From the IMG/VR virus record IMGVR_UViG_2579778652_000004: a stretch of DNA of 5,648 bases. One strand, written 5' to 3'. Shown here one piece after another: positions 1 to 5,648 of the stretch. Every line of letters begins with the position of its first letter. Position 1 is the stretch's first letter. The translations under genes and the position numbers were made by a program. This DNA is from a virus. Lineage: Duplodnaviria > Heunggongvirae > Uroviricota > Caudoviricetes. The notes beneath the pieces are model-generated. The model was given only the letters and a program-made list of their open reading frames with translations. It did no database searches and had not been told where the DNA came from.

Positions 1-1
1 T

Positions 2-352
2 CGCAATGTCCGGGCAAAATCAGGTTTAAACCGTTCGATACTGGATCAGGGCTGGTATGAAATGCGCCGCCAGCTTGAGTACAAGCAGCTCTGGCGTGGC
101 GGTCAGGTGCTTGCTGTTCCGCCAGCGTACACAAGCCAGCGTTGCGCGTGCTGTGGTCATACAGCGAAAGAAAATCGCCTGTCACAAAGTAAATTCAGAT
201 GCCAGGTATGTGGATATACAGCGAACGCCGATGTAAACGGCGCTCGTAACATTTTAGCGGCGGGGCACGCCGTACTTGCCTGTGGAGGGATGGTGCAGTC
301 AGGCCGCCCGTTGAAGCAGGAACCCACCGAAATGATTCAGGCGACAGCCTGA
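2..352 (+). CDS. tnpB: IS200/IS605-family TnpB (OrfB) RNA-guided nuclease, C-terminal ~117 aa; 5' end lies outside the window
   Basis: The frame is open from the window edge: [20 protein letters not shown] precedes the Met at 62, so the 96-aa ORF in the track is the tail of a longer protein. It carries the TnpB C-terminal signature: 'SILDQGW...RRQLEYK', a CxxC...CxxC zinc ribbon (CACCGHT ... CQVCGYT) and the RuvC-III-like '[10 protein letters not shown]' motif with the Asp retained. Stop TGA at 350-352. Confidence 0.85.
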
Positions 353-410
353 ACGTAGCAGGAATCCACGCCCTTCGGGGCGTGGAGGATGTCACACTGC
401 CTCTTTAATG
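230..410 (+). ncRNA. Candidate TnpB-associated guide RNA (omega RNA / reRNA) overlapping the tnpB 3' end and IS right end; coordinates approximate
   Basis: Established knowledge for IS200/IS605 TnpB: the guide RNA scaffold is encoded by the 3' end of tnpB plus the right end, with about 16 nt of guide copied from DNA just outside the IS. The UUCG hairpin at 365-386 on the tnpB-sense strand fits a terminal scaffold stem. No RNA ends can be determined from sequence alone. Confidence 0.25.
365..386. repeat. Hairpin: 9-bp stem (365-373 / 378-386) with TTCG loop, immediately 3' of tnpB
   Basis: Read directly: tccacgccc-ttcg-gggcgtgga. In plus-sense RNA this is a C(UUCG)G tetraloop hairpin. It is part of a 30-nt motif repeated at 4118-4147. 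Confidence 0.75.
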
Positions 411-757
411 TTGGCGGCTATCCATGCCGCCGTGTGCTGTTTAACCTGGTCCAGGTCGATGTATGTGCCAACATATTGACTCAAGTCCTGTAACGTACCG
501 ATAAATGCATCAGTGCTCTGATCGACGAATTTATCAGCCAGGAAATCAGCAACCAGTTTTGGCACACCATCATGTTCCGAAGGTTGTTTTTCCTCGCCAC
601 TACCACCGCCGGACGCGCCGTACCCCATCTGTTGCATGATCTGGTCAATTTCATCGCTGATATCCAGCAACTCCATACCACTCGCGATAGCCGCTTTGGA
701 CATCAGAGCATCCAACTTATCGCTGAGATCCATTAACTCAATAGCTGATAGTGTCAT
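392..757 (-). CDS. ddrA: Small, strongly acidic protein (121 aa), DdrA-like member of a P1-type Dar anti-restriction operon
   Basis: Its ATG at 755-757 overlaps the darA-like stop (ATGA overlap at 754-757), with a G-rich SD-like stretch upstream. The protein has about 21 Asp/Glu against 7 Lys and no Arg. Position immediately downstream of the darA-like gene matches P1 gene order as I recall it. The stop TGA (392-394) lies inside the repeated hairpin motif. Confidence 0.45.
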   Translation of the reverse strand: MTLSAIELMDLSDKLDALMSKAAIASGMELLDISDEIDQIMQQMGYGASGGGSGEEKQPSEHDGVPKLVADFLADKFVDQSTDAFIGTLQDLSQYVGTYIDLDQVKQHTAAWIAANIKEAV

Positions 758-2673
758 GCCGCTACCCCCGCTTTCTGGATTGCTACCAGCAGATCAGCCA
801 GGTGGCGAGCAGCGCCATTAACCAGCTCTTCGTTTTCCTCAAAACGCCCGGCAGCCTGAAGGGCTGCAATCGCTTCCCGGACATTGCCCCGGGCGTTACG
901 GATCTCCGCCATGTCAGTGCTTTGCATATCCATCACGTTATTGAGATATTCAATGGCTTTATTAGCCTCTGCATCTGCTTCGCTAACCGTTTCATCAGGC
1001 TGTGCCGGGACCGGTTCTGGTTGAGTAATCTCACCGACTTCGGCCTGCAATGCCTTGATCATGCTCTGCACCATTTTCTCGGTGCCAGCGCCCCCAGGAA
1101 ACGCAATATTGGGGAAAGTTTTTTGAAACTGAGTTTTCAGCATTACGCGGAACTCGTCTGGTGAGCTGGTGGCCAGCTCCAGAGCTTTTTGTGCATATTT
1201 GCCAAACGGACCATTAGTAAGTGTCTTCGCCAGGAAGTCGAAAGAATCCTCGCGAGGCAATAACTTCAGGTCGTACTCACTCATTTGCTGATCAGAAAGC
1301 GGGGTATCGTAAGTAGCAATGCCGTAGCGTGCATATTCATAATACGGGTCACCTTCATCAGGGCGCGGCAGAATTGCTTTGTTACCTTCAGGTATTGCGC
1401 CAGGGGCCGCCGGACGCATTTGCAGGGCATATCGATATGCACCTACAGAGACTTCTGGTTCAGGCGAAGAGCTACCGGTATCCTCCGCTGGTTCAGGTTC
1501 GACGTTTTCCGGTTTATGTTCTTCTGGTTGGACCAGGTATTCCGATACATTACCCGCTTTATAGGCTTTAAACAGCTTGCCGATCGCATCTGCCATGTCC
1601 ACACCCTGTATGGATTTAGCCTTGATCATGTATACGCTGCCATCCGGATCGGTTAACTGGATATACCCTTCGCCATCCCCAATGAATTGCTTCATTGATG
1701 CACCATTACTGAGCGTCGCTTCCCCGTCCATATGCATACGATTTTTGATACTGGCAAGGCGATCCGTCAGCGCGCGAGAGTACCCACCAGTCATCCCCGC
1801 AGGAGCAATGGTATCGCGCCCACCAGTGCGATTGAGCTGATCAATCTCCGTCTGCAAACGCTCATTCTCTTCATAAAGAGAATCCGCTTCCGATGCAACA
1901 GCGTTAATTTTCTGCTCCAGATCTGCCTTCTGCCCTTCTACCGCTGCCACCTGATCCGCGAGGTCGCTCATGGCATCCTCTTTCTGGTCACTGTCAGCCT
2001 GTAGTTGGGTTATTTCATCAACAAGGGCTTTTTTCTTCTTCTGCGCACGCTGGAATTTTGCCGAGTTTTTCTCTGCAAGGTTGGCAAGTTTCATGGTGAC
2101 CTGCGCCAGCGTCATATCACGTCCACTCATCGGAGCAACGGTGTGAGTAACGTCTTTTTTATTCAGTAAGAACTGGAAAGCAACCAGCGTATCGCTATTG
2201 GTGATCCGGTTTTCCGCTGTCGGGCTATGAAACAGAATGCTGATAGTCTGACCATCACTGAGCGGAATAATGGCTGGCAGGACCGGCAGCCCGTTAACGT
2301 TACGTGCCCGACCAATTTCAGCGCCGCCGATCGCGCGCGCGCCGCTCTGGGCCACATCGCCCGTTTTATCACTCCCCGCAGAGATTCCGGTACCATTCAG
2401 CTTCTGGTTCAATGCCCGGACAAATGCCTGCATGGTCCGGTGTAACTGCAAACGAGTAGAACTAATCGCCTCCAGTAAATCCGTAGCACACCAGTGGATC
2501 GGCGTGTCATAGAAGAACGTAGCCTCGATTTCCTCCAGGGTGTTGGATTCCGTCATCAGATAGCGGTCCTCACCGGCCATTAATGCGCGATATTCATCAT
2601 CAGTCACTGGCGGGGGAAGCGCGTCAAGCCCAGGTTTGATCGTCACCCCTTTATTGATATTGAACTGTTCCAT
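754..2673 (-). CDS. darA: DarA-like protein (639 aa), large component of the phage P1-type 'defence against restriction' system
   Basis: Long uninterrupted ORF with ATG at 2671-2673 and an AGGAAA SD about 8 nt upstream. Size and position (after the holin/antiholin pair and an hdf-like gene) match the P1 darA operon. Residues about 135-215 are paralogous to the upstream 200-aa ORF (shared 'KNSAKFQ'), matching the definition of Hdf as a homologue of a DarA fragment. Contains a coiled-coil-like heptad region (about residues 210-275) and Pro/Glu-rich linkers. Confidence 0.6.
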   Translation of the reverse strand: MEQFNINKGVTIKPGLDALPPPVTDDEYRALMAGEDRYLMTESNTLEEIEATFFYDTPIHWCATDLLEAISSTRLQLHRTMQAFVRALNQKLNGTGISAGSDKTGDVAQSGARAIGGAEIGRARNVNGLPVLPAIIPLSDGQTISILFHSPTAENRITNSDTLVAFQFLLNKKDVTHTVAPMSGRDMTLAQVTMKLANLAEKNSAKFQRAQKKKKALVDEITQLQADSDQKEDAMSDLADQVAAVEGQKADLEQKINAVASEADSLYEENERLQTEIDQLNRTGGRDTIAPAGMTGGYSRALTDRLASIKNRMHMDGEATLSNGASMKQFIGDGEGYIQLTDPDGSVYMIKAKSIQGVDMADAIGKLFKAYKAGNVSEYLVQPEEHKPENVEPEPAEDTGSSSPEPEVSVGAYRYALQMRPAAPGAIPEGNKAILPRPDEGDPYYEYARYGIATYDTPLSDQQMSEYDLKLLPREDSFDFLAKTLTNGPFGKYAQKALELATSSPDEFRVMLKTQFQKTFPNIAFPGGAGTEKMVQSMIKALQAEVGEITQPEPVPAQPDETVSEADAEANKAIEYLNNVMDMQSTDMAEIRNARGNVREAIAALQAAGRFEENEELVNGAARHLADLLVAIQKAGVAA

Positions 2674-2674
2674 G

Positions 2675-3277
2675 TTAATTTCCTGCTTTCAGTTGCTTAA
2701 GACGGCGTTTGAGTTCGCCATTTCGGGCCTTTTCGTTATTGAGTCGGCCTGTCTCCTTATCCAGCTTCGCCCGCAAATCAGTGATCTGCTGTTGATTGAA
2801 AGACACCGAGTTCTGCGCTGATTTATAAGCGGCAACCACCTGAACATTCCGCTGTTTTGCCTCTTGCAGGCGCTGAAAGTTGGATTTTACTGCCGGTTTC
2901 TTGTCTACCGGATTGGCAACACGTTTCGCTTTGGCGATCAGTGATTTCTGGAATTTTGCGGAGTTTTTGCGGGCCGCTTGCCCCATGACGGTACCAAGCG
3001 TCTTGATATCCGGCGACTGAGCGTTAGGAATAGCTTTTCCATTCAGCCTCACAGACGATATATCGCCAGTATCGTTTACCTGTATGGCAAGAATTTGTCC
3101 GTCGTTAAGAACCAGCTTTGCGGTTTTAACTTTAACGCCATCTTTCGTTGTTGCGCGGTTGCTGGAGTCAACCTCAATTACCGTAACACCGGTTTTATTG
3201 ATCGCCGCGATAAGGGATTTCAGCCCCTTTTCATTAACCTGGTCAAAATCGACCGTTGCATACTTATTTTTCGTCAT
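2675..3277 (-). CDS. hdf: Hdf-like protein (about 200 aa; homologue of DarA fragment), Dar system component
   Basis: Shares a roughly 70-aa segment with the DarA-like protein, including 'ARKNSAKFQK' against 'EKNSAKFQR' and 'LNDGQ' against 'LSDGQ', and has a coiled-coil-like C-terminus. The ATG at 3275-3277 (MTKNKY...) is preferred because AGGA sits 8 nt upstream; the track start at 3286 (MCQ...) has the AGGA directly abutting the ATG. Stop TAA at 2675-2677, 1 nt before the darA start. Confidence 0.55.
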   Translation of the reverse strand: MTKNKYATVDFDQVNEKGLKSLIAAINKTGVTVIEVDSSNRATTKDGVKVKTAKLVLNDGQILAIQVNDTGDISSVRLNGKAIPNAQSPDIKTLGTVMGQAARKNSAKFQKSLIAKAKRVANPVDKKPAVKSNFQRLQEAKQRNVQVVAAYKSAQNSVSFNQQQITDLRAKLDKETGRLNNEKARNGELKRRLKQLKAGN

Positions 3278-3707
3278 CTGACACATCCTGTGCGAGATTT
3301 ATTACGTAACTTCTGCGGATTTGCTGAGTAACAGGGAAAATCCGATACAACGGGTTAATGAACGAGTCGCCATGCGTAACCATGACGTTGAAATGCCACA
3401 GCCGTTCTCCTTTACCCATATATTCAGTGGGTATGTACAACCATTCACTGTTTTCGCCCTGTTCAGCCGACGTCAGACAACGTTGTTCGCCTTCAATCAC
3501 AGTCGTCGGCTTCTGAACATCGCGGATCCAATATCTGACCGTTGCGCCGCGCAAAAACGGGAATTTAGACCGGTATTTGAACGGCACCCGGATGAAACCC
3601 GGTTTAATTTCCACATCACCAAGTTCTAAATGCGTGATGTCCTTGCGTTTTAGCAAATAGCGATCGGCTAAGGCTAACGCAAGAACGCATACACCCCAGC
3701 CAATCAT
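3264..3707 (-). CDS. lydB: LydB-like protein (147 aa), putative antiholin / lysis regulator
   Basis: ATG at 3705-3707 overlaps the holin stop (ATGA), with a GGGAGG SD 7 nt upstream. Hydrophobic N-terminus (MIGWGVCVLALALA). Size and position directly after the holin match the P1 lydA-lydB arrangement as I recall it. Confidence 0.5.
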   Translation of the reverse strand: MIGWGVCVLALALADRYLLKRKDITHLELGDVEIKPGFIRVPFKYRSKFPFLRGATVRYWIRDVQKPTTVIEGEQRCLTSAEQGENSEWLYIPTEYMGKGERLWHFNVMVTHGDSFINPLYRIFPVTQQIRRSYVINLAQDVSDDEK

Positions 3708-4033
3708 TTCCCGCCTCCCTTTTTCACCAAACTTGTAAGAACATTCAGAATGCTATCGATATTCACTCGTTTCATCCCTGAAATCACCTCATGACCGTTA
3801 TTGCTGGCTATCGTTACCATTAAGTACGTAATTGATAACTCCCAGCCCTCGTGTTGCCCCAATAGGTACGCCACCGCGCCAGCTGTCACTGCAACAAAGA
3901 TCTCCGTAACCAATCCCAACAAATTGCCAGACTGGCGACCGTCTCGGACATCCATCAGGAACGTGCCTATCCCACCAATTACTGAAAGCAGGAGCGCAAT
4001 AGCAACTGGAGCTAATTCCTGTGTGTCAAGCAC
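3704..4033 (-). CDS. lydA: Holin (LydA-like, 109 aa), GTG start
   Basis: Small protein with 2-3 predicted transmembrane helices (LAPVAIALLLSVIGGIGTFLM; LVTEIFVAVTAGAVAYLL; SITYLMVTIA) and a charged C-terminus (KKGGGK), the classic holin architecture. A perfect AGGAGG SD lies 6 nt upstream of the GTG at 4031-4033. Confidence 0.6.
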   Translation of the reverse strand: MLDTQELAPVAIALLLSVIGGIGTFLMDVRDGRQSGNLLGLVTEIFVAVTAGAVAYLLGQHEGWELSITYLMVTIASNNGHEVISGMKRVNIDSILNVLTSLVKKGGGK

Positions 4034-4039
4034 AAGTTT

Positions 4040-4059
4040 CCTCCTACGTTGTCAGGAGG
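4040..4059 (-). promoter_or_regulatory. Potential SD-sequestering stem-loop in the holin 5' leader (CCUCCU-8 nt-AGGAGG on the mRNA strand)
   Basis: Read directly: plus-strand cctcct (4040-4045) and aggagg (4054-4059) are inverted repeats. On the minus-sense mRNA the lydA-like SD (AGGAGG) can pair with an upstream CCUCCU. Only a 6-bp stem, so stability is modest. Confidence 0.3.
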
Positions 4060-4108
4060 TAATGGTATGCAAAGTAACTTCTTCTCTGATTAAGTTATGT
4101 AATGCGCC

Positions 4109-4148
4109 TTGACATCCTCCACGTCCTTCAGGGCGTGGAGGATGTCAA
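4109..4148. repeat. 40-nt near-perfect palindrome (18-bp stem with one G·T, TTCA loop) overlapping the stop codon and last codons of the DUF1353-like gene; second copy of the motif seen at the IS junction
   Basis: Read directly: ttgacatcctccacgtcc-ttca-gggcgtggaggatgtcaa. Positions 4118-4147 match 365-394 at 28 of 30 nt. The DUF1353-like TGA stop (4128-4130) lies in the loop. Confidence 0.75.
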
Positions 4149-4541
4149 CTGGTATTTTCCTCTTCCAAAAAGTCTGACCGCACAATACATCAGCATCCTG
4201 CGCCAGCGGGGAACACCCAGTACACACATCGCATCAAGAAATATCTTGTCCGCTTCGTGCTTTGTCCGCAGCGCGTTGTCGTACAGCCAGTCGTGAATAA
4301 TCGCCGCTTTGGCGTAACGACCGTGTGGCGGAAATACCGACCAGAGAATGCGCGGTACGCTGGCAAGGTCTGTGACATACCCCGCAGGAACCGCAATCAC
4401 ATCCACGGGGTTATCCGTCAGCCAGAACTCAAACGGCTCAACCAGTCGCCAGCGGTAATCATCGAGCATTTCCAGCACGGCAGGAGTGGTGAATTTACTC
4501 ATCGCCCCATCCCACAACATAACGGCGAACGGCGTCGGCAC
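4128..4541 (-). CDS. Conserved phage protein of unknown function, DUF1353-like (about 124-137 aa depending on start)
   Basis: ORF with 'TDLASVPRILW...HDWLYD' motifs, which I recognise as DUF1353-type. Start is ambiguous: GTG at 4541 (AGGA 7 nt upstream, 47-nt overlap with the upstream gene), or ATG at 4520 or 4502. Confidence 0.5.
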   Translation of the reverse strand: MPTPFAVMLWDGAMSKFTTPAVLEMLDDYRWRLVEPFEFWLTDNPVDVIAVPAGYVTDLASVPRILWSVFPPHGRYAKAAIIHDWLYDNALRTKHEADKIFLDAMCVLGVPRWRRMLMYCAVRLFGRGKYQLTSSTP

Positions 4542-5070
4542 TGTCCAGTCCTGCCACGTCCTCTTTCATCTGCCGCTGGCGTTCGTGTATCTGAAAACCA
4601 CGGATAACCATCGCCTGCAACATGGCAGCGTCCAGCTGTACCAGCTCTTCCGGCGTGAGGGTGACGTCCTGGTTATCCGCGTCAGTCCAGAAAAAGCCCG
4701 CCGGAAGCGCACCCGCCTGTGCCACAGCAATCACCGGTGCCAGGCGGCTTCGTGAAATTTTTCCACCGTCCCAGCGGTGGCCATTCCACTCAAAAATAAT
4801 TCCGGCGTTTTCCTGGTCATCACGCCAGCGACTGATTTCATCATGCTTACTCTGACGGATGCGCTCCAGCTGCGCTTCTGTCATCACAAACGGTGCAATT
4901 TCTCCGGCAAGGCCATCCTGAAGCGCCTGCCAGACGGCCCGGCCTGTTGCTGCGGTATCTGTGGCGGTTGCGGTGTATGGGATAAACTCTGTTTCCCCTT
5001 CAAACAACACCTGACAACTGATCGCGTCATGAGATATGTAAACCGGATTTTTAATTGACAAAATATTCAT
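4495..5070 (-). CDS. Tail-fibre assembly / chaperone-like protein (191 aa)
   Basis: ATG at 5068-5070 with an AAGGTGG SD about 8 nt upstream. It lies immediately downstream of a probable tail-fibre C-terminus and has typical Tfa size. The C-terminal region 'FFWTDADNQDVTLTPEELVQL' resembles tail-fibre-assembly/DUF4376-like proteins; the assignment is by context and motif memory only. Confidence 0.45.
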   Translation of the reverse strand: MNILSIKNPVYISHDAISCQVLFEGETEFIPYTATATDTAATGRAVWQALQDGLAGEIAPFVMTEAQLERIRQSKHDEISRWRDDQENAGIIFEWNGHRWDGGKISRSRLAPVIAVAQAGALPAGFFWTDADNQDVTLTPEELVQLDAAMLQAMVIRGFQIHERQRQMKEDVAGLDSADAVRRYVVGWGDE

Positions 5071-5090
5071 CTATCTAACCACCTTTTTCA

Positions 5091-5648
5091 TTATGCGAAT
5101 CTGATAAAGAGGCCAATTTCGTATCCGGTTATTGCACCTATATATCCGTACAGTGCAGCGTAACTGCCAGGGAATGAGCTTGTACCAATATCATCAACAT
5201 TAAATATCAGCGTTTTCATGTCGGGCTTTAATTCAATATTAATATCCCTTAAATAACGACCATCTACCATGCGGCCACGGGCTGTCATAGTGAAATCATC
5301 TGCTGGCCTCATATATGCGGCAAGAAATACATTACCAACATCAGGTTCAAAGGTCGCACTATGCGATCTGATTCGCCTTGCTATTAGATCAGGCGTCACC
5401 AGAAATTCCTGCATGGAATAGAGTGTATCGAGCGAAATAAACTGTCTGGCAATTTCTGAAATGCTTGCCAGACTAATCTTTTTATCCGCGTCAAAATACG
5501 GAAATGCATTTCCGGCAGGCATTAATTTACTTAGTGCCGTCAGCATGTCATTCAGTGGTTGTTTTTTATCAAGAGCAGCTTTAATCGCCTTAACCGCCTT
5601 TGGTGTGGCAGCTTCCGTTTCGCTTTCACTGTCAGTATCGCTACTTAA
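5091..5648 (-). CDS. 3' part of a gene whose frame is open to the right window edge; probably the C-terminal (distal, receptor-binding) part of a tail-fibre protein
   Basis: The minus-strand frame stays open upstream of the Met at 5546 through to 5648 (…SDTDSESETEAATPKAVKAIKAALDKK…). Stop TAA at 5091-5093, 20 nt before the Tfa-like start. AT-rich (about 40% GC against about 55-60% in the Dar genes). Function is inferred from position upstream of the tfa-like gene. Confidence 0.35.
   Translation of the reverse strand, partial: LSSDTDSESETEAATPKAVKAIKAALDKKQPLNDMLTALSKLMPAGNAFPYFDADKKISLASISEIARQFISLDTLYSMQEFLVTPDLIARRIRSHSATFEPDVGNVFLAAYMRPADDFTMTARGRMVDGRYLRDINIELKPDMKTLIFNVDDIGTSSFPGSYAALYGYIGAITGYEIGLFIRFA

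Follow-up and report, generated by a model that had tools for sequence, protein, structure and literature searches.

Does an insertion sequence (IS) lying directly against the 3' end of ddrA disable the anti-restriction module of a P1-like phage-plasmid, or does it leave that module whole? The question is raised by a stretch of 5,648 nucleotides, referred to here as the window, in which a tnpB gene on the plus strand and ddrA on the minus strand converge (positions 1 to 757). The preliminary description of this DNA had placed a TnpB-type IS against the 3' end of ddrA with tnpB in convergent orientation, and both the open reading frames and the protein motifs bear this out. A look-up with the exact DdrA protein identified the window as the entire 5,648-bp draft contig AYQO01000195.1 of assembly GCA_000503355.1, and also returned a 95.9-kb contig, JADPVP010000021.1, which agrees with the window at 5,648 of 5,648 positions. 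In the phage, plasmid, and E. coli collections, by comparison, the best match reaches 98.6%. The window stops within tnpB because the draft contig broke at a multicopy repeat, and not because of a biological truncation. Our results indicate that the IS is very probably a complete, tnpA-less, non-autonomous element of 1,335 bp from the IS609 family, located 3' of TTAT, with ddrB intact but displaced, an omega-RNA guide predicted from the flank, and little or no effect on the host.

The remainder of the locus is the late lysis/Dar operon of P1. Positions 397 to 4082 are 98 to 99% identical to P1, P7, and many P1-like phage-plasmids, and the gene order is that of the P1 late operon, lydA-lydB-hdf-darA-ddrA-ddrB. 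The complete Dar module, hdf-darA-ddrA-ddrB behind lydA-lydB, is present, with ddrB located past the IS in JADPVP010000021.1. In P1, ddrA and ddrB are adjacent, whereas here the IS lies between them. The genes and the visible part of the IS are as follows.

3704-4033, minus strand: lydA, P1 late lysis/Dar operon
3264-3707, minus strand: lydB, same operon
2675-3286, minus strand: hdf, same operon
754-2673, minus strand: darA, same operon
392-757, minus strand: ddrA, 121 amino acids (aa), residue 121 Val versus Ala in P1
1-395, plus strand: right-hand 395 nt of the 1,335-bp IS, the rest lying beyond the contig end; identical to the RCS47 copy
2-352, plus strand: 3' part of tnpB, the last 116 codons plus TGA, with the zinc ribbon and the RuvC-III Asp

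To the right of lydA, where P1 carries lydC-cin, the window harbors a different tail-fibre module, and positions 4083 to 5648 depart from the lydC-cin-C segment of P1. This region encodes a DUF1353 protein (4128-4541), a DUF4376 protein (4495-5070), a 151-aa open reading frame without a Pfam match (5091-5546), and, in the frame running inward from 5648, the C-terminal end of a Phage_fiber_2 tail-fibre gene that is called in JADPVP010000021.1. The arrangement is shared by only three PLSDB records and by only three in the E. coli collection.

Boundaries and identity of the inserted element

The ends of the IS were fixed by comparison with the empty site of P1, which reads ...ACGCCTTAT|GCTGCCTC with the core TTAT|GCTGCC. 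The P1 ddrB-ddrA junction is ...CAT CCGTGTTACGCC TTAT|GCTGCCTCTTTAATG, and only 12 nt separate the ddrA stop codon from the ddrB start, so the order of ddrA followed by ddrB, given for P1 in the preliminary description, is right. The filled site of RCS47 (NC_042128) reads TTAT|CCAATGTGCC...GGATGTCAC|GCTGCC, with 1,335 bp inserted; in a longer form, its right boundary is ...GGAGGATGTCAC|GCTGCC. Salmonella phage SJ46 and RCS47 share the site, the orientation, and the 1,335-bp length of the insertion. When the sequence is extended leftward in JADPVP010000021.1, the junctions are those of RCS47: the left end of the IS stands next to TTAT, intact ddrB follows, and the 1,335-bp IS shows 0 differences from the RCS47 copy, the window carrying one private substitution, G396A, in the flank. 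The empty TTAT|GCTGCC becomes TTAT|IS|GCTGCC without target duplication, a trait of the IS200/IS605 family.

Measured against the unoccupied junction of P1, the last base of the IS is 395 and the first base of the flank is 396. An end at 394 with a guide flank of 395-410, as first proposed, was one base off; the flank is 396-411. The other end considered at the outset, 364, which would make the hairpin itself the flank, is excluded, as a 9-bp hairpin at 365-373/378-386 and the trailing GGAGGATGTCA belong to the IS itself: both are conserved across about 50 copies, which come from Enterobacterales and other taxa. Conservation in about 50 copies also holds for the right terminus, GGAGGATGTCAA. 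In IS200/IS605 elements, a sub-terminal hairpin at the right end is the structure recognized by TnpA. Two features lie at this boundary.

365-386, unstranded: sub-terminal right-end hairpin, DNA fold z = -3.3; also the last stem of the predicted omega-RNA, with covariation
392-394, minus strand: TGA stop codon of ddrA, supplied by the right end of the IS (gTCAc)

IS positions 100 to 1334 are about 95% identical to insQ of E. coli K-12, which we take to belong to IS609, related copies being present in 5,015 of the 5,426 complete genomes of E. coli. The identity extends across tnpB and the right end. Also shared with IS609 are the TTAT target, the right-end hairpin followed by GGAGGATGTCA, the lack of a target duplication, and a homologous left end. 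This left end is a diverged homologue of the chromosomal one; it aligns to the IS609 left end, which has a CCCC...GGGG stem, and the fold of its hairpin is not better than that of shuffled sequences (z = -1.1). About 17 independent sites were compared; about 12 of them have TTAT as their left flank, and about 5 have TTAC. The right end is TCAA nearly everywhere and TCAC in the P1-borne copies, so that the last base is C in the latter versus A in IS609. The two also differ in gene content: full IS609 has a divergent tnpA within about 500 nt before tnpB, whereas in the P1-borne element the tnpB ATG follows the left boundary after only 83 nt, an interval with no second open reading frame and no tnpA (Y1/HUH transposase). 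Judging from this gene content, we are dealing with a tnpB-only derivative that is not autonomous; others of this type are found in Citrobacter and Kluyvera.

IS609, with the cleavage sites TTAT (left) and TCAA (right), has been described in the P1-like plasmid pJIE250-3, and a 1.3-kb IS609-like sequence has been reported in pSvP1 (Venturini 2019, PMC6906374). From the published coordinates, we infer that the latter occupies the same ddrB/ddrA position. The insertion is therefore already known in kind: it is real but ordinary, a tnpB-only element of the IS609 type at a site of P1-like phage-plasmids where polymorphism is known.

Consequences of the insertion for ddrA and ddrB

The stop codon of ddrA (TCA on the plus strand) starts 6 nt past the hairpin stem. 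The closeness of stop and hairpin noted earlier thus stands; the notion that the stop lies beside the IS does not, as the stop lies within it. The insertion interrupts ddrA within its last sense codon, and the end of the gene reads GCA GC|A TAA in P1 and GCA GC|G TGA in IS-bearing genomes. The third base of codon 121 and the entire stop codon are therefore IS derived in these genomes, the TAA of P1 being replaced by TGA. DdrA nonetheless stays 121 aa long, because the right end of the IS (...GGATGTCAC) provides G plus TGA. Comparison with P1 DdrA confirmed that this is the native length, also found in IS-free relatives. Residues 1 to 120 match P1 DdrA at 117 of 120 positions. Residue 121 also differs, since base 396 is A in the window and codon 121 is consequently GTG (Val), versus Ala in P1.

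The same exchange is seen on chromosomes, where IS609 copies sit on the stop codons of the convergent genes ydcO (K-12) and yedK (strain E8). Compared with the corresponding empty sites, both genes are one codon longer in the IS-bearing strains (by Tyr and Cys, respectively) and end at the TGA of the IS right end. One stop is swapped for another because TTAT complements A-TAA, while TCAA/TCAC complements T/G-TGA in the same phase. Among 50 distinct insertion sites, 12 have a long convergent open reading frame that is open to the boundary, and the right-end TGA closes 7 of these 12 at once (binomial p of about 0.07 against an expected one third). This is suggestive at most of IS609 right ends closing convergent genes generally. 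A reading of the phase bias as adaptation was set aside, as survivorship would give the same pattern and p is only about 0.07.

A further trace of IS609 lies elsewhere in the window. Positions 4109 to 4148 form a 40-nt palindrome, TTGACATCCTCCACGTCC-TTCA-GGGCGTGGAGGATGTCAA, made up of the hairpin and tail of the IS609 right end plus an inverted copy of that tail on the 5' side. Before it stand TTAT (4094-4097) and 10 nt resembling the start of the left end. The palindrome is situated just past the end of P1 homology (4082), at the beginning of the different tail-fibre module, and its loop contains the stop codon (4128-4130) of the DUF1353 open reading frame. The same palindrome is found in other plasmids with different flanks (three loci). 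Its origin may be a right end left behind on its own, or else a miniature IS609 derivative, at a junction where modules were exchanged. In pM121-2 and NZ_CP136027, a second, unrelated tnpB-only IS (391-aa TnpB, minus strand) is inserted between lydA and the palindrome, at the equivalent of window position 4092/4093 (coordinates 9080-10420 of the plasmid locus examined). Because of this second tnpB-only IS, the intergenic stretch between lydA and the palindrome appears as one hit repeatedly by IS200/IS605 elements.

As for ddrB, two outcomes had been proposed, truncation of the anti-restriction module or displacement of ddrB to the far side of the IS, and the results clearly favor the second. 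In JADPVP010000021.1, the start codon of an intact ddrB (995 aa, PF18763) is found 16 nt past the left end of the IS. The gene is also full length beyond the IS in RCS47, pMUB-MIN10-2, and pM121-2, and intact in 10 of the 10 IS-bearing loci having enough sequence, which refutes truncation. The insertion moves ddrB 1,335 bp further downstream from ddrA. An intact ddrB past the IS, together with a ddrA of equal length in IS-free relatives, is what a neutral insertion between genes leaves behind. As far as gene content can tell, the insertion is essentially neutral for Dar coding capacity, and it would have little or no effect on the host, because all Dar genes are retained.

A broader form of the same idea is that the IS truncates or silences the module, with ddrB either lost or left unexpressed because it is cut off from the late promoter LPdar. 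The geometry lends this some appeal: ddrB normally follows ddrA by 12 nt within a single late operon, the 1.3-kb insert between ddrB and LPdar is antisense to the late transcript, and one terminator-like site is found on the minus strand within the IS, although the count of such sites is not above chance. Loss is contradicted by the full-length ddrB of all the loci listed above. Silencing fits poorly with the age of the insertion, since divergence among the IS copies located here reaches 4.3%, and a silenced gene of 3 kb would be expected to decay meanwhile. In addition, an AAGG Shine-Dalgarno-like motif upstream of ddrB remains with that gene, because TTAT stays on the ddrB side. When the IS and its junctions were scanned for promoters and terminators, the counts did not exceed those expected from shuffled sequences. 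We consider truncation or silencing quite unlikely, and retain the reading in which ddrB is intact but displaced; the 1.3-kb antisense insert may exert some polarity on ddrB.

TnpB and its predicted omega-RNA

The TnpB part in the window (2-352, plus strand) is the C-terminal 116 aa of the protein, in which the RuvC-III motif (ADVNGA) and a zinc ribbon of the form CxxC...CxxC can be recognized; the product is annotated with PF07282. The full TnpB in JADPVP010000021.1 is intact, with 402 aa, and its Pfam matches are HTH_OrfB_IS605, OrfB_IS605, and the TNB zinc ribbon. It matches ISDra2 TnpB (8EXA) with E = 9e-52, with the same domain order and with the catalytic motifs GLDAG, IEDL, and ADVNGA aligned. 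The RuvC D-E-D triad and the zinc ribbon are thus present, only the third motif and the ribbon lying inside the window. All 12 complete copies at the ddrA/ddrB site retain the 402-aa open reading frame. The most diverged of them differ from the RCS47 copy by about 25 synonymous and 13 non-synonymous codon changes, which indicates that TnpB is under purifying selection.

An alignment was made of the terminal 230 nt from 49 distinct copies; the TnpB proteins encoded by these copies share 52 to 93% identity with the query protein. The consensus structure has 7 helices and 36 pairs, with 95% of cells paired versus about 44% when partners are slid. Compensatory changes are found in 16 pairs, and in this 49-sequence alignment 0 of 500 shuffles reach the observed values; in helix 7, the hairpin, 5 of 7 pairs carry such changes. 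The structure spans 249-392, and the long-range helix 249-255/386-392 closes it just before the IS end. An Rfam scan of the whole window gave no hit at the gathering score and only weak hits to HgcC, sot0042, and RAGATH-18 over 225-408. The conserved structure looks like an omega-RNA scaffold, and the predicted elements are as follows.

249-395, plus strand: predicted omega-RNA scaffold (last ~147 nt of the IS), from covariation among 49 sequences
249-255/386-392, 257-262/268-273, and 279-283/316-320, plus strand: helices of the predicted scaffold
288-294/303-308, 338-342/347-351, and 367-373/378-384, plus strand: further helices of the predicted scaffold
396-411, plus strand: predicted guide, 16 nt, ACTGCCTCTTTAATGT, antisense to the last ddrA codons

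A structured RNA that overlaps the tnpB 3' end and the right end is a feature of ISDra2, as it is predicted to be here. In ISDra2, the TAM is also the transposon target site, and the same is predicted for the P1-borne element, with TTAT as the TAM instead of the TTGAT of ISDra2. The 16-nt guide length is taken from ISDra2 TnpB (PMC8612924), and the guide is accordingly predicted to be 396-411. ISDra2 has its own tnpA, whereas the P1-borne element does not.

The window has A at base 396, where all other copies and all empty sites examined have G. The G396A change affects both DdrA (A121V) and the first base of the predicted guide. A396 was found in 0 of the 76 junction-bearing PLSDB plasmids, in 0 of 18 fetched IS-bearing loci, and in no IMG/VR contig in either filled or empty context; it is seen only in contigs encoding the exact DdrA of the window. 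Because 396 is A here and G in the empty sites, the predicted guide mismatches its natural target at the TAM-proximal position. Directly after the predicted guide, in antisense ddrA sequence, the plus strand carries a terminator-like hairpin (412-432), TGGCGGCTATCCATGCCGCCG followed by TGTGCTGTTT. It might set the 3' end of read-out transcripts, the regional count of such sites being not above chance.

Two other readings of the tnpB sequence were weighed against that of an ordinary IS. In the first, TnpB would be a domesticated, nuclease-dead, TldR-like regulator that the phage has recruited to control ddrA/ddrB. The predicted guide would indeed pair with the 3' end of ddrA, and domestication of TnpB in prophages is documented (PMC10705468). 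The element, however, retains what TldR systems have lost, namely, both transposon ends and the TTAT target, and its RuvC D-E-D motifs and zinc ribbon are conserved. It is also about 95% identical to the IS609 copies that are spread over E. coli chromosomes, and it is missing from about 80% of P1-like elements. Recruitment as a regulator is, in our judgment, very improbable. The second, a dead tnpB fragment or relic without a left end, as the 116 codons visible in the window might suggest, is hardly tenable, since the window is a whole draft contig, the identical longer contig holds the entire 1,335-bp element with its left end, its TTAT, and the 402-aa TnpB, and none of the 12 complete copies at this site departs from 1,335 bp or has a broken open reading frame.

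Distribution and possible working of the element

The IS-ddrA junction is present in 75 plasmids of PLSDB, versus 357 with the empty site, and in 15 IMG/VR sequences, versus 60 with the empty site. About 17 to 20% of P1-like elements thus carry the IS at the ddrA/ddrB site. Flank diversity is 0.0139 within IS-bearing genomes, 0.0157 within IS-free genomes, and 0.0156 between the two groups. Because it is equal within and between groups, the IS-bearing genomes are not a clade and their flanks are intermixed with those of IS-free genomes. Between IS copies at this site, the mean difference is 2.0%, and the largest is 58 of 1,335 bases. Since they differ by up to about 4%, the polymorphism must be old, and these diversity data describe an old, stable polymorphism. 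A recent homing sweep was rejected on the same grounds, that is, intermixed flanks and diverged IS copies. Recombination, precise excision, and homing would all be compatible with the diversity of flanks and IS copies, which does not distinguish among them.

Three IMG/VR copies at the same site differ from the RCS47 type at 46 to 51 of 1,335 bases, with 8 to 9 changes in the 126 non-coding end bases. Their divergence exceeds the typical flank divergence (about 1.5%), a hint that these copies either underwent gene conversion with other IS609 elements or arrived independently.

By analogy with the mechanisms established for the family (Karvelis 2021, PMC8612924; Meers 2023, 10.1101/2023.03.14.532601), the element might work as follows. 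TnpA supplied in trans would excise it, leaving TTAT-GCTGCC.... TnpB would bind an omega-RNA whose scaffold derives from about 249-395 and whose guide derives from the flank, 396-411. This complex would recognize the TTAT TAM together with a guide match and cut the vacant ddrA/ddrB junction, and recombinational repair from an IS-bearing copy would then restore the element. The vacant target would arise by TnpA-mediated excision or would already exist in a P1 relative that lacks the IS; for the element to reach new sites, TnpA in trans would be required. Excision, as a source of the TnpB target, depends on a helper because the element lacks tnpA, and the chromosomal IS609 tnpA copies examined (K-12 and strain E8) are pseudogenes. 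The TCAC right end, in place of the near-universal TCAA, may moreover impair cleavage by TnpA.

The natural target, TTAT plus GCTGCCTCTTTAATGT, would be the ddrA/ddrB junction of every IS-free P1-like phage-plasmid, because the predicted guide is copied from the last codons of ddrA. This raises the possibility, which we regard as speculative and unlikely, that a resident IS-bearing P1-like plasmid cuts incoming or co-resident IS-free relatives at this target, the IS acting as a homing drive or in exclusion. If true, the element would be an RNA-guided weapon in the competition between P1-like elements, and this could help explain why about one-fifth of them carry the IS at the exact site, on backbones that do not form a clade.

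For the biology of P1 itself, the insertion carries little weight, as the anti-restriction genes are all intact. Windows that end inside an IS are often draft contigs broken at repeats and not biological truncations. The locus presents a clean case of an IS200/IS605-family element harmlessly seated on the stop codon of a gene, and it provides base-exact IS boundaries, a TAM (TTAT), and a predicted guide for a TnpB frequently found in the phage-plasmids of clinical E. coli.
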